DNA of 64,000 bases from Polyangium mundeleinium (lineage in GTDB: Bacteria > Myxococcota_A > Polyangia > Polyangiales > Polyangiaceae): contig NZ_JAQNDO010000001.1 in the NCBI RefSeq assembly GCF_028369105.1, forward strand, positions 1,907,711 through 1,971,710, written 5' to 3'. The translations under genes were made by a program, and so were the position numbers. The first letter of the stretch is position 1; each line of letters starts with the position of its first letter. The notes below the pieces were generated by a model, which was given only the letters and a program-made list of their open reading frames with translations, did no database searches and was not told the DNA's origin. Below are positions 20,497-22,836 of this stretch, one piece after another.

Positions 20497-20611
20497 GGGC
20501 CTCGGGTCGGGGATTGTTGGCCCGGTGGGGAAGGGGCTGGCAAGGGGGATCACGGCTGCGCGTGGGCGATGCGTGGGCAGGGCGGAGGCTGTGGGCCGCG
20601 GCGGACAGGGG
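20497..20611 (+). repeat. conserved leader/promoter region, copy 1 (duplicated at 21627..21746)
   Basis: Near-identical about 115-bp non-coding block immediately upstream of the start codon of both MCMQRVVVG lipoprotein genes. Similarity continues into the first about 25 codons. Confidence 0.7.
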
Positions 20612-21508
20612 ATGTGTATGCAGAGGGTGGTGGTCGGGTGGGTGGTGGCGTGGAGCTTGGTGGTCGGGGTGGGGTGCGAGAAGGAGTGTAAGAATCCGGC
20701 GTTGACCTGGGACGAGGTGAAGGGTCGCGGCAGGATCGAGGGGCCTGCGATGCCGTGCAACATCGTCAAAGTTTGCGATCCCGGCCAGGGTCGCCCCATC
20801 CGGAGAGAGGCACTGACGCCGCTGGTAGACCCCAAGATCATCGACCGCGGGTACGCAAATGACAACAGGGACTCCTGCATACACAAGGCGCAGCGGCTCG
20901 AGCTCATTGACAGCGGATGCAAGGGAGAGGCTTCACCGGAGCGGATCTGCCTCGATGCACCCGGCTCATCGAACGGACCCGACTTCACCGGCTCCACAGG
21001 CGGAACGTTTGTCACGGTGGGGGTTGGGGCTGGCAGCGGGGACTACTGGTTCCACGAGCAGGGCGCTGGCGGCCCGGAGTCTTGCAAGACGGATCTCTGG
21101 TTCGTCTTCGACTGGTGCGAGAGTCCGGCGCGCTGGCCGCGTAAGTATATCTTTGAAGGCCACGTGGCCGCTTTTCAAGCCGGCTGTGTGATGCATCTTT
21201 GCCCGGAGCAAATCACGTGCACCGAGATCGATCCGATGTGGTGTGGAACTCCTTGTGAGGACCCGACAGGTGCAACCTTCTGGCGCAACTTGGCCGTCCT
21301 GGGGGACCGTTGTGGCCACCTGAGTGGTGATATCGATGGCGATGGCGAATGGGAGCCATCAGAAGACCGCGCCTATCGCGGCTGTGCAGACGCAGAAATG
21401 AAAGCACTGTGCCCCGCGTGTTTTGAGAGGTGGAAACGGGAGGGAGTGACTGCCCAAGAGGTGACCCAAGAAGGCACCTCTCCCCGGACATCCAGCACAA
21501 CCCAGTAA
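20612..21508 (+). CDS. cysteine-rich secreted lipoprotein, two-domain (N-domain plus C-terminal Cys-rich domain)
   Basis: Signal peptide MCMQRVVVGWVVAWSLVVGVGC (lipobox). N-domain ends GDYWF. The C-domain motif CPEQxxCTxxDPMxCxxCxDxxGAxFWRN also occurs in 22264..22836. Confidence 0.6.
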   Translation: MCMQRVVVGWVVAWSLVVGVGCEKECKNPALTWDEVKGRGRIEGPAMPCNIVKVCDPGQGRPIRREALTPLVDPKIIDRGYANDNRDSCIHKAQRLELIDSGCKGEASPERICLDAPGSSNGPDFTGSTGGTFVTVGVGAGSGDYWFHEQGAGGPESCKTDLWFVFDWCESPARWPRKYIFEGHVAAFQAGCVMHLCPEQITCTEIDPMWCGTPCEDPTGATFWRNLAVLGDRCGHLSGDIDGDGEWEPSEDRAYRGCADAEMKALCPACFERWKREGVTAQEVTQEGTSPRTSSTTQ

Positions 21509-21626
21509 CCCGTCGTCGCTGGCACCCACATCTCCCCTGGCAGCGTTCAAAGCTTTCTGTCCCATTTGTCCCCACGCCCCTCCCGCCCCGCGTTCCCCCA
21601 CGGATCCGGGGACAACCCGCTTTGGG

Positions 21627-21746
21627 CCTCGGGGGGGCGCGCGGGGATAGTTGGCCCGGTGGGGAGGGGTCTGGCAAGGGGGATCACGGCTGCGCGTGGG
21701 CGACGCGTGAGCGGCCCGGGAGGCCGTAGGCCGCGTCGGACAGGGG
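21627..21746 (+). repeat. conserved leader/promoter region, copy 2
   Basis: See 20497..20611. Confidence 0.7.
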
Positions 21747-22253
21747 ATGTGTATGCAGAGGGTCGTGGTCGGGTTCTTGGTGGCGTGGAGCTTGGTGGTC
21801 GCGGTGGGGTGTGAGAGCAAGTGCCGAAACCCGAAAATACACCGTGAACTTGGTGGGCTCGAAGGCCCCGCCATTCAGTGTAACGTCGTCATTATGTGCC
21901 CGAACCAGGCAGGGCGTCCTGACTCCGTGGAGCGTTTGGAGGGTCTCGTGGATCCCGTCATCCGCGATCATGGCTCCGGGAATCGAGACCTGTGCAAGGG
22001 GGCAGCCATGAAAATAAGGCCCTACGAGAAACAGATAAAATGCGAGTTCGATGCCGCTCCCGCGTTGATCTGTCTCGACGGAGCTGGTTCTTCGAACGGG
22101 CCCGACTACACGGGGCCGACCGGCGGGACCCTCGTCACCGTTGGGGTGGGCGCTGGCACCGGGGACTATTGGTTCGACGAGGACGAGGAGGGGGCAGGCG
22201 GAGAAGGGGGCTTCGATGCCCACCCCGGTGAGGGAGGTCACGGCGGGATCTGA
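21747..22253 (+). CDS. cysteine-containing secreted lipoprotein, N-domain-only paralog of 20612..21508
   Basis: Same signal peptide and N-domain. Terminates right after GDYWF with a Gly/acidic tail. 168 aa. Confidence 0.55.
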   Translation: MCMQRVVVGFLVAWSLVVAVGCESKCRNPKIHRELGGLEGPAIQCNVVIMCPNQAGRPDSVERLEGLVDPVIRDHGSGNRDLCKGAAMKIRPYEKQIKCEFDAAPALICLDGAGSSNGPDYTGPTGGTLVTVGVGAGTGDYWFDEDEEGAGGEGGFDAHPGEGGHGGI

Positions 22254-22263
22254 GGTCCAGCCT

Positions 22264-22836
22264 TCACCGAGGCGAAGATGATTGTGCGCCTGGAGCGGGA
22301 GCGCGTGCAGGGAGGGTGCGTTTGCGGGGGAAGGGCGTGACGGCGTCGAAGTGGGTCAACCAATCGGTTCGGGCGAGAGCCGGGCAGTGTTGCTCGACAT
22401 CTACGGGGAAGCATTCATCGAAGGCACGATACATCGCCTGATACTTCGCCTCCGTGGGCTCCTCCACCAACACAAAGAACCCGGCCTTGTGTCCGCACCG
22501 GGACCCAGCCTCATCGACGTTGCGCCAGAAGGCGGCGCCCTGCATGTCGTCACAAGGGGCGCAGAACATGGGGTCGAGGCCCGTGCACTCGGCTTGTTCC
22601 GGGCAAATCGTGCTCACGCAACCAGCGACGCACGCGTCCACGAACTCTTCGTCCACGTACGGACAGACGTCCCATCCATGGCAGCCCTCGAAGACGTACC
22701 CGAGGTCATCCTCGCAGTGCTTGTACATCGAGTCGTCCTCGTCCGGGCCACGCGCCCCCAGGATGAGCGCTGCGGCGGCGGCGATGACGAGGGCGGCGAA
22801 GGCTGCGCGGCGTGTCTTCGGGCTCGAAGCTCTCAC
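22264..22836 (-). CDS. cysteine-rich secreted protein homologous to the C-terminal domain of 20612..21508
   Basis: Own signal peptide (AALVIAAAAALILGA), then the CPEQ...FWRN...RCGH Cys-rich domain. Confidence 0.6.
   Translation of the reverse strand: MRASSPKTRRAAFAALVIAAAAALILGARGPDEDDSMYKHCEDDLGYVFEGCHGWDVCPYVDEEFVDACVAGCVSTICPEQAECTGLDPMFCAPCDDMQGAAFWRNVDEAGSRCGHKAGFFVLVEEPTEAKYQAMYRAFDECFPVDVEQHCPALARTDWLTHFDAVTPFPRKRTLPARAPAPGAQSSSPR

Follow-up and report, generated by a model that had tools for sequence, protein, structure and literature searches.

A shared promoter and leader module that precedes mosaic lipoprotein bodies is already well known from Mycoplasma and Borrelia. The vsp genes of M. 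bovis, the vlp genes of M. hyorhinis and the vsa genes of M. pulmonis open with a highly conserved 5' non-coding region and a prolipoprotein signal peptide, behind which the mature regions diverge, and vsa recombination joins the 5' end of the expression site to alternative bodies just downstream of the signal peptide. In myxobacteria, the polymorphic lipoprotein toxins known as SitA are encoded with SitI immunity proteins, which are cytoplasmic; the toxins have a conserved N-terminal export region, occur in several divergent copies per genome, and have an adjacent cognate gene. For the erp genes of Borrelia burgdorferi (OspE/F-related, 'upstream homology box'), which reside on cp32 prophages, the paralogues share the promoter/operator, the leader peptide and the first mature residues, whereas the rest of the open reading frame (ORF) is divergent, mosaic and recombines often (PMC10016077). 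The locus described here lies in a stretch of 64,000 nucleotides from the soil bacterium Polyangium mundeleinium (contig NZ_JAQNDO010000001.1, positions 1,907,711 to 1,971,710; 68.6% GC), hereafter the window, and comprises two lipoprotein genes, A and B, that begin with a duplicated 5' module, together with a gene, C', that is convergent with B. The product of gene A is 100% identical to a hypothetical lipoprotein of P. mundeleinium (P0001) encoded on a 13.2-Mb contig, placing the locus on the chromosome. This site is likely to be a hot-spot that holds two members of a set of exported, disulfide-rich, two-gene cassettes restricted to Polyangium.

Each cassette consists of a lipoprotein gene, N, and a gene for a helical Cys-rich partner, which is either C (co-directional with N) or C' (convergent with N). 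The N genes are preceded by a family-specific 5' module made up of a bipartite motif, a G-rich 5' untranslated region (UTR), a Shine-Dalgarno sequence and a conserved lipoprotein signal peptide. By acting as a homology arm, the 5' module may promote gene conversion or homologous recombination and so give rise to extra similarity within a genome, with an element in the 3' UTR as the possible other arm. The features of the locus are as follows, in coordinates of the window.

20497 to 20617, plus strand: leader copy A, with a promoter-like motif, a G-rich 5' UTR and a Shine-Dalgarno sequence, all in the non-coding portion of the 5' module that A shares with B, 90% identical to 21630-21752 with a 1-bp indel, and 85-87% identical to the orthologous leaders in L002 and L005.
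20516 to 20544, plus strand: copy A of the bipartite motif GTTGGCCC-N13-CTGGCAAG, a candidate promoter or operator found by pattern scan, in which the spacer sequence drifts and its length is 13 nt.
20559 to 20573, plus strand: small palindrome or hairpin, CGCGT-GGGCG-ATGCG, in the 5' UTR, read by eye and perfect in copy B at 21693-21707.
20607 to 20611, plus strand: Shine-Dalgarno sequence AGGGG of gene A, within leader copy A.
20618 to 21508, plus strand: gene A, a fusion lipoprotein of N and C, 296 amino acids, the same as P0001, with an alternative ATG at 20612.
20618 to 20674, plus strand: signal peptide of gene A, followed by the lipobox Cys codon (20675-20677) and the N domain (to ~21055).
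21073/21074, plus strand: fusion junction of gene A, mapped against L002, L005 and L013, followed by the C domain (21074-21508).
21561 to 21625, plus strand: copy 1 of the 3'-UTR element (CCCATTTGTCCCCAC...CCGGGGACAA), between gene A and leader B.
21630 to 21752, plus strand: leader copy B, with the bipartite motif at 21650-21678.
21753 to 22253, plus strand: gene B, a stand-alone N-type lipoprotein of clade beta, 166 amino acids, with a Gly/acidic tail, the same as P0014 of P. mundeleinium.
22264 to 22836, minus strand: gene C', the convergent partner of B, 190 amino acids, with a GTG start, its own signal peptide and a C-type Cys-rich helical domain, 41% identical in amino acids to the C-half of A and 90.5% to the L009 orthologue.
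22976 to 23015, plus strand: copy 2 of the 3'-UTR element, orthologous to the element 3' of the C gene in L002 and L005.

Here, L001 to L014 are loci fetched from other Polyangium genomes or metagenomes (L007 is from P. fumosum, L009 from P. jinanense, and L013 is an ENA metagenome contig), and P-numbers denote relatives found in cluster searches. The likely start codons of A and B are those at 20618 and 21753, both opening a protein that begins MQRV and both preceded by AGGGG, as in the 296-amino-acid NCBI model P0001.

The first-pass annotation had proposed that the similarity of A and B extends upstream of their coding sequences, and alignment of 20440-21060 with 21570-22190 bears this out, since near-identity runs from approximately 20497 or 20508 to approximately 20688 and drops sharply thereafter. 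The 185-bp 5' module of A (20497-20681) is ~90% identical to 21630-21816, and a 1-bp indel in the non-coding part places the stretches upstream of A and B in different frames, from which it follows that the conserved tract is non-coding. A repeat finder recovered the same tract as two blocks (20508-20585 versus 21642-21719, 90%; 20584-20688 versus 21719-21823, 89%), and the 32-mer TGGCAAGGGGGATCACGGCTGCGCGTGGGCGA has exactly two occurrences in the window, at 20538 and 21672, against an expectation of 0 from 100 shuffles. The duplication of the leader is real, and is not a chance resemblance.

Identity between A and B falls to 57% exactly at the lipobox Cys codon. The earlier description of B as almost identical to A thus holds for the leader (90%) and the signal peptide (91%), but not for the mature N domain, which shares 57% of nucleotides and 53-55% of amino acids, with synonymous sites saturated. 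Compared to its orthologues in L002 and L005, A is 74-75% identical in the signal peptide and 77-79% in the mature N region, in addition to the leader values listed above. The mature part of B is 92% identical in nucleotides to that of L009 and 70% to that of L007, but only 57% to that of A. At the syntenic site in L009, the signal peptide is 91% identical to that of the A-type gene of L005, the mature part is 92% identical to B, and the switch from one to the other is at the lipobox. Grouping of the 5' module by genome or locus, and of the mature part by cassette type, points to gene conversion or recombination whose breakpoint coincides with the end of the signal peptide. The 90% identity of A and B therefore points mainly to a footprint of recombination, and not mainly to regulatory constraint, with gene conversion or recombination probably acting on top of a constraint on the promoter. 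Values of dN/dS in the family range from 0.14 to 0.44 (~0.2 for lipoprotein D and for a 170-amino-acid protein, the products of the flanking genes), and every pairwise value is below 0.5, giving no sign of pervasive positive selection.

A map of the cassettes, constructed with tblastn over all fetched loci (13 loci), contains two arrangements. An N gene followed by a co-directional C gene is present in L002, L003/4, L005, L010, L011 and L012, and in L002, which is syntenic, as in L003-L005, the spacing between the two genes is 83 nt. A B-like or related N gene followed by a convergent C'-type gene is present in the window and in L001, L006, L007, L008, L009, L013 and L014, and both partner types are found in L010. 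The partner of B is always a convergent C', and B and C' together represent an old, anciently diverged and conserved cassette type, as opposed to a local shuffle. The convergent gene had initially been taken for the C domain alone behind its own signal peptide; it does possess a signal peptide and a C-type domain, but it is a distinct and conserved partner type, and not a detached copy of the C-half of A. Similarly, B had been thought to stop after GDYWF, when in fact it carries the canonical 25-residue Gly/acidic tail of the family, making B the normal form and A the derived form.

That gene A consists of an N region and a C region, as the first-pass annotation had stated, is confirmed by BLASTP, with 55% amino acid identity to B over residues 1-147, and 41% to the product of C' over residues 156-269 of A. 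The two halves are separate proteins in every relative, and A is the sole N-C fusion among 25 proteins of the N family. Across the junction, the sequence of A reads ...GDYWFHEQGAGG followed directly by PESCKTDLWF, the left side being the start of the N tail and the right side the first residues of mature C. Relative to L002 and L005, ~230 bp are missing in A, a stretch that takes in the N tail with its stop codon, the spacer between the genes, and 31 codons of C, and the junction itself has only 1-2 nt of microhomology. This comparison shows that gene A is derived, a deletion of ~230 bp having fused N to C in frame and removed the signal peptide of C. In L013, the same C allele as the C-half of A (98.3% nucleotide identity over 346 bp) retains its signal peptide and the canonical upstream spacer, and this high identity to a stand-alone C gene indicates that the fusion is very young. 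What had been described as domain shuffling is thus better explained by the recent in-frame fusion of two adjacent genes, together with the presence in tandem of another, ancient cassette, the convergent C' of which is conserved across seven or more loci. As a separate observation, the C-half of A (window positions 21140-21190, residues ~176-190) and the metagenomic orthologue P0002 have jointly lost two otherwise invariant Cys residues (WPC to WPR, and AACQ to AAFQ), which suggests that these residues may form a disulfide in the rest of the family.

Relatives of the N and C proteins are few. A word-indexed search of 5.8e9 clusters returned 13 relatives of A; an N-type profile retrieved 25 proteins (weakest E-value 4e-42), the named ones all from Polyangium and the others from (soil) metagenomes; and a full HMMER scan with a C-type profile gave ~48 representatives, the named ones again from Polyangium. 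Both families thus appear to be restricted to this genus. The second C-type gene of P. mundeleinium corresponds to P0009. The N proteins are lipoproteins of ~167 amino acids that have, besides the lipobox, an alpha/beta domain with 6 Cys residues, a segment, TLVTVGVGAGSGDYWF, that is invariant, and a Gly/acidic tail, the C-terminus reading ...VGVGAGSGDYWF and then ...GGQGGI. The C proteins are helical, have ~171 amino acids and their own signal peptide, and the partner proteins carry 10-12 Cys residues. A lipobox of the PROSITE type ([LVI..][ASTVI][GAS]-C, applied by eye) can be read in A, where MQRVVVGWVVAWSLVVGVG precedes the Cys, and in B, where ...SLVVAVG does so; the Cys is invariant in all 14 of the aligned N proteins, and the UniRef name of both P0001 and P0014 is 'Lipoprotein'. 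By the lipobox pattern, A and B are predicted to be bacterial lipoproteins, and as such substrates of Lgt and LspA. An AlphaFold2 model of A, based on a family alignment of 44 rows, consists of an alpha/beta N domain (residues 25-110, predicted local distance difference test (pLDDT) score above 90), a disordered stretch (residues 116-149) that contains the most conserved N segment and the fusion linker, and an all-helical C domain (residues 150-285, pLDDT 78-95).

The C family also includes tandem C-C' fusions (in Polyangium sp. 6x1 and P. fumosum) and members with a lipobox of their own, a set that is made up of P0032, P0034/P0080, P0035, P0066, P0070 and P0079. In the case of P0079, an N-like start (GCTTEEKACKNPKK) is joined to a C domain. 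Fusion and re-anchoring of the C domain are, from these cases, recurrent. Two large proteins from the C-profile search, P0065 and P0078, are leucine-rich repeat and malectin proteins, and were treated as spurious matches to the Cys pattern. A possible homology between the TLVTVGVGAGSGDYWF segment of N and the signal peptide of C-type proteins (..LVTVGLGA..) was dropped after hhalign of the family profiles gave a probability of 1.6%.

The sequences 3' of the cassettes are also shared. The stretch at 21561-21625, just after the stop codon of A, has homologues at 22976-23015 and in the 3' UTR behind the N-C operon of both L002 and L005. The element thus recurs after C', where synteny with L002 is restored from 23005 onwards and continues into a terminator conserved at 100%. 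With the element on both sides, leader B, gene B and C' sit between two element copies. In L009 (positions 4001-5530), a chimeric and frameshifted N gene with an A-type leader and signal peptide and a B-type body is found with an intact C', and the same stretch holds a remnant of an N tail (...DPGAGGQGGI and a stop codon) and a 5'-truncated C gene. Here, a B-C' block appears to have replaced the body of the resident N gene, of which the leader and signal peptide remain. Both the tandem layout of the window and that of L009 would fit homologous recombination with the 5' module and the 3'-UTR element as arms, although they do not prove it. In L013 (positions 46-1650), a C gene that is 98% identical to the C-half of A runs, at a GC microhomology, into a B-type mature region that is in a different frame, with ~400 bp including leader B missing, and a further type-1 leader starts after the convergent C'; the joint could be a real deletion or an assembly chimera. 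A more far-reaching proposal, and one that must be regarded as doubtful, is that the site is a hot-spot of cassette exchange, bounded by two homology arms, the 5' module (left) and the TTTGTCCCCAC 3'-UTR element (right), where matched cassettes are added, replaced or fused to yield lineage-specific pairs displayed on the envelope. Such a system, in a myxobacterium that is social and predatory, would resemble the surface diversification of erp and vsp, would function in kin discrimination or antagonism, and would perhaps be driven by an undescribed class of promoter.

In an alignment of the sequences that precede all N genes, with the lipobox codon as anchor, the sole feature that survived between distant loci was the bipartite motif (G)GAT(A/T)-GTTGGCCC-N13-CTGGCAAG, with the variant GTTGCCCC-N13-CTCGTAGG in another clade (in aligned form, GGAAAC-GTTG(C/G/T)CC(C/G)-N13-CTCGTAGG). 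The motif lies upstream of 13 of the 14 N genes, in at least seven Polyangium genomes or metagenome bins, and a further copy is present at the end of L013, where no ORF follows before the contig runs out. In 12 of 13 motif copies the spacer measures 13 nt, its sequence is variable, and the distance from the motif to the ATG codon ranges from 11 nt (L006 and L014) to 105 nt (L001). A spacer constant in length but free in sequence, at a varying distance from the ATG codon, is the pattern of a promoter or of a dimeric operator, and not that of an RNA element. With zero mismatches allowed, the degenerate pattern matches only the two leaders in the window, and in ~95 kb of other loci it matches only upstream of N genes; a scan of a metagenome collection with the type-1 motif yielded one contig, again with a B-type N gene and a convergent C'. 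The motif may represent a promoter, with -35/-10-like boxes, or an operator that co-regulates the N genes. The earlier suggestion that the conserved leader reflects a shared promoter or 5'-UTR element is thus upheld in part: a non-coding tract with a common motif exists at nearly all N genes, but the identity of A and B is mainly due to recombination, and no signal of RNA structure was found.

A number of other assignments for the motif were considered and rejected. A dispersed repeat, such as a miniature inverted-repeat transposable element (MITE) or a repetitive extragenic palindromic (REP) element, is not supported, since the window has only two copies, and these, like every copy in 13 other loci and in the metagenome scan, are directly upstream of an N-type gene. 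For a sigma-54 promoter (TGGCAC-N5-TTGCW, with the GG at -24 and the GC at -12 exactly 10 nt apart), the -12 position in CTGGCAAGGGGGATCAC reads ATCA and not TTGC, and the variant CTCGTAGG, read directly, has no GG in the sigma-54 register. When GTTGGC-N17-GGCAAG is read as a sigma-70 promoter, the score at the -10 position is poor.

Several observations weigh against reading the locus as a site of two-gene cassettes that share a promoter module. The N gene of L008 has no motif, and the spacer in L010 is 8 nt. Promoter prediction, which had been suggested as a check, was negative in that the motif fits no consensus promoter tested, including the GG-N10-GC register of sigma-54, and neither leader has a site in a scan of 19500-23400 for the sigma-70 consensus (TTGACA-N16-18-TATAAT, with 9 or more of 12 positions matching). 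The variant motif carries GGAAAC and CGTA, similar to promoters of extracytoplasmic function (ECF) sigma factors, but the distance from AAC to CGT is 23 nt (18 nt in L010) as compared to 16-17 nt in classical ECF promoters; the motif could still be a promoter of a non-canonical ECF group, and its putative promoter role is suggested by the pattern of conservation. With respect to the leader, conservation amounts to 86% over the full 500 bp of intergenic sequence in the three closest species, so that leader conservation among close relatives is barely above the neutral expectation, and constraint on the leader is evident only from distant comparisons. Moreover, an A/B tract at 90% is not a very recent conversion, and purifying selection and conversion are not cleanly separable. 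Partner type tracks the N clade, but the overall correlation between N and partner distances is weak (r = 0.31; Mantel p = 0.019).

Other such points concern function. Scans of A, B, C', D and the 170-amino-acid gene against Pfam, NCBIfam and PADLOC gave no match. Separate searches with the N and C domains, as had been advised, led only to relatives in Polyangium or metagenomes. Profile searches of the PDB with the N and C alignments found nothing at E <= 1, and there was no fold match either. In the AlphaFold2 model of A, a predicted template modelling (pTM) score of 0.51 makes the relative placement of the two domains unreliable, with no confident packing between them, and a physical interaction between N and C is putative.

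A role for the cassettes can nevertheless be proposed. The fusion in A, when viewed with Rosetta-stone logic, together with the C proteins that bear a lipobox, the C-C' fusions and the clade-matched partners, suggests that N and its partner form a complex at the cell envelope in which N is the lipid anchor. With modest confidence, the most likely mechanism is that N is a lipid-anchored carrier or receptor for the secreted partner, and that in A a covalent tether replaces the non-covalent pairing. An alternative use of the same architecture, which at present seems unlikely, is that the cassettes are polymorphic modules of antagonism or recognition, that is, a secreted toxin with a lipoprotein immunity protein, or a matched surface receptor and ligand, and that the hot-spot is a site of diversity-generating exchange. 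Several divergent cassettes per genome, partner types matched to the N clade, confinement of the family to one genus, and differences in cassette content at one syntenic site among close relatives would all be expected of such modules, as would the common occurrence of pseudogenes, fusions and truncations (L009, L013 and gene A). The N lipoproteins also have non-Lys residues at the +2 position, and by the rules of lipoprotein sorting in M. xanthus a non-Lys +2 residue suggests an outer-membrane location. Scans of Pfam, NCBIfam and PADLOC recognised no toxin, immunity or defence domain, and no paper on cysteine-rich lipoproteins of Polyangium was found in the literature.

For the motif itself, a tentative alternative, held with no more conviction than the antagonism modules, is that the ECF-like sigma factor encoded nearby (24563-25594) recognises it as a promoter, and that the N/C cassettes, and perhaps D, form an envelope-stress or signalling regulon of that factor. 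The gene for the sigma factor is 2 kb downstream and syntenic in L005 and L009, the GGAAAC...CGTA variant resembles the AAC element at -35 and the CGT element at -10 of ECF promoters, and a bipartite layout with a fixed spacer fits a group-4 sigma factor. Counting against it, in addition to the unusual AAC-to-CGT distance, neither the sigma gene nor D is preceded by a copy of the motif, and ECF sigma factors are usually autoregulated. The sigma gene is also absent from the fetched flanks (up to 6 kb) of cassettes at other loci, and from L002. Given the missing motif before the sigma gene, and the absence of the gene at other cassette loci, a link between the two is only hypothetical.

It is very unlikely that the leader is a structured cis-regulatory RNA (a riboswitch, attenuator, thermosensor or G-quadruplex switch) that is conserved for its structure. 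The leader is very G-rich (52% G in 20251-20750), includes the small palindrome at 20559-20573, and in RNAalifold shows a possible pairing of a UGCGCGUG stretch with the region of the start codon. However, a gathering-threshold scan of the whole window with Rfam gave 0 matches, the single-sequence fold of the leader has z = -0.8 relative to shuffles, and in an alifold of six sequences the covariation term is unfavourable, with a double change in only 3 of 32 pairs. In L006 and L014, the bipartite motif is retained with only 11 nt to the ATG codon, implying that most of the 'UTR' is dispensable, and the most conserved blocks are two octamers with a spacer of fixed length and free sequence, a pattern of recognition by protein. 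The palindrome, at best a candidate element, is missing from relatives with a short leader. A conserved upstream ORF in the leader was ruled out, since the copies differ by indels of 1, 6 and more nt, which disrupt the frame.

That A and B are a simple recent tandem duplication, with a leader that looks conserved only because the mature domains diverged quickly under positive selection, can be set aside as already contradicted: the two genes are adjacent and on the same strand, and the family does evolve somewhat faster than its neighbours (dN/dS of 0.3-0.44 versus ~0.2 for D and the 170-amino-acid gene), but no pairwise value reaches 0.5, mature synonymous sites are saturated while codons of the signal peptide are 91% identical, the mature part of B is closer to other species than to A, and a conserved convergent partner of their own accompanies the B-type genes in seven or more loci.

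The cassette site is flanked by conserved genes, the 170-amino-acid gene on the left and lipoprotein D on the right. To the right of C' and the second 3'-UTR element are the following features.

23219 to 23244, plus strand: palindromic intrinsic terminator that closes the cassette region, with an 11-bp stem followed by a T-run, 100% identical in L002.
23299 to 24504, plus strand: gene D, a Cys-rich lipoprotein of 401 amino acids, the conserved right-hand neighbour of the cassette site, with 78-82% amino acid identity in L002, L005 and L009.
24563 to 25594, plus strand: ECF-like sigma factor with a C-terminal extension, identified by weak NCBIfam ECF matches and Pfam Sigma70_r4_2, a candidate regulator only.

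Two tandem terminators, each a hairpin followed by a T-run, occupy 23165-23253 in an unusually AT-rich intergenic region before gene D. This block is conserved, with ~85% identity to L002, and a small RNA gene there is a possibility. The ECF-like sigma factor has 343 amino acids, of which the C-terminal extension of ~150 has no assigned family, and its gene accompanies the cassette site in syntenic position in Polyangium sp. y55x31 and P. jinanense, which is not the case in L002. Just 3' of the sigma gene, 56 nt at 25647-25702 are 87.5% identical to positions 2089-2144 of L002, the start region of a 251-amino-acid gene that stands in place of the 170-amino-acid gene, which hints at a further rearrangement around the hot-spot.

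On the left-hand side, three to four copies of a ~36-nt unit (CC.TGGAGGG...GGGATAGCCTTGGAGGGTCGG) are present at 20149-20420, between the 170-amino-acid gene and leader A, and are kept in L005 and L009. The core of this array, GGGATAG..TTGG, resembles the left half of the leader motif, and the array may be one of regulator sites that has no counterpart in the leader of B. The sequence GGGTGGGTTGGTGGGCTTTGTGGGTGGGGG at 20470-20500, immediately before leader A, has the form of a canonical G-quadruplex motif, and is on the coding strand. Elsewhere in the window, three very large ORFs of ~1300 amino acids are on the minus strand (8638-12504, 15692-19597 and 37843-41901), and the one directly upstream of the cassette site (15692-19597) has, by eye, the look of a Ser/Thr-kinase/AAA/TPR-type protein.

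If the cassette interpretation is correct, N and C/C' would represent a previously undescribed, genus-restricted pair of protein families, with confidently predicted folds that have no structural neighbour. In addition, a compact conserved motif would mark their promoters, and provide a handle on the sigma factor or regulator that acts on them, in a genus, Polyangium, where molecular genetics is almost absent. That A is a natural and recent fusion would be a hint that the N and C proteins work together, and the turnover of cassettes at one syntenic site would make a tractable case for studying how recombination diversifies myxobacterial envelope proteins.

Although the protein families are new, their arrangement has parallels, of which the erp genes of Borrelia may be considered the closest, by analogy and not by homology. 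As with erp, conserved upstream DNA is common to the paralogues, and a conserved leader peptide precedes a mature region that is divergent and phylogenetically incongruent, with the tract shared in Polyangium ending just after the lipobox. The differences are that the Polyangium proteins have no relationship in sequence or fold to Erp, that their genes are chromosomal and located between housekeeping-type neighbours, and not on prophage plasmids of the cp32 type, that each lipoprotein is paired with a matched secreted partner gene, and that only two copies are found at the locus. For the proteins that bind the erp operator, no Polyangium counterpart was identified.

The breakpoint at the lipobox in the P. 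jinanense chimera is similar to the joint made by vsa recombination. Unlike the Mycoplasma families, however, no site-specific recombinase, inverted recombination sites or phase-variable repeats were seen at the Polyangium locus, where both copies have complete 5' modules, there are no silent cassettes, and the convergent orientation of C' is stable across species. With SitA and SitI, the Polyangium lipoproteins have in common a conserved export region, divergent copies and an adjacent cognate gene, but no toxin domain was found with Pfam or NCBIfam, and the partner in Polyangium is exported. Finally, gene A resembles known Rosetta-stone fusions, in that adjacent genes that are separate in all relatives have been fused in one genome by an in-frame deletion, and a functional or physical link between N and C would follow from such a fusion. 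In contrast to a plain Rosetta-stone fusion, the fusion in A also drops the signal peptide of the partner, and would therefore change how the partner is attached to the membrane, and not its stoichiometry alone.

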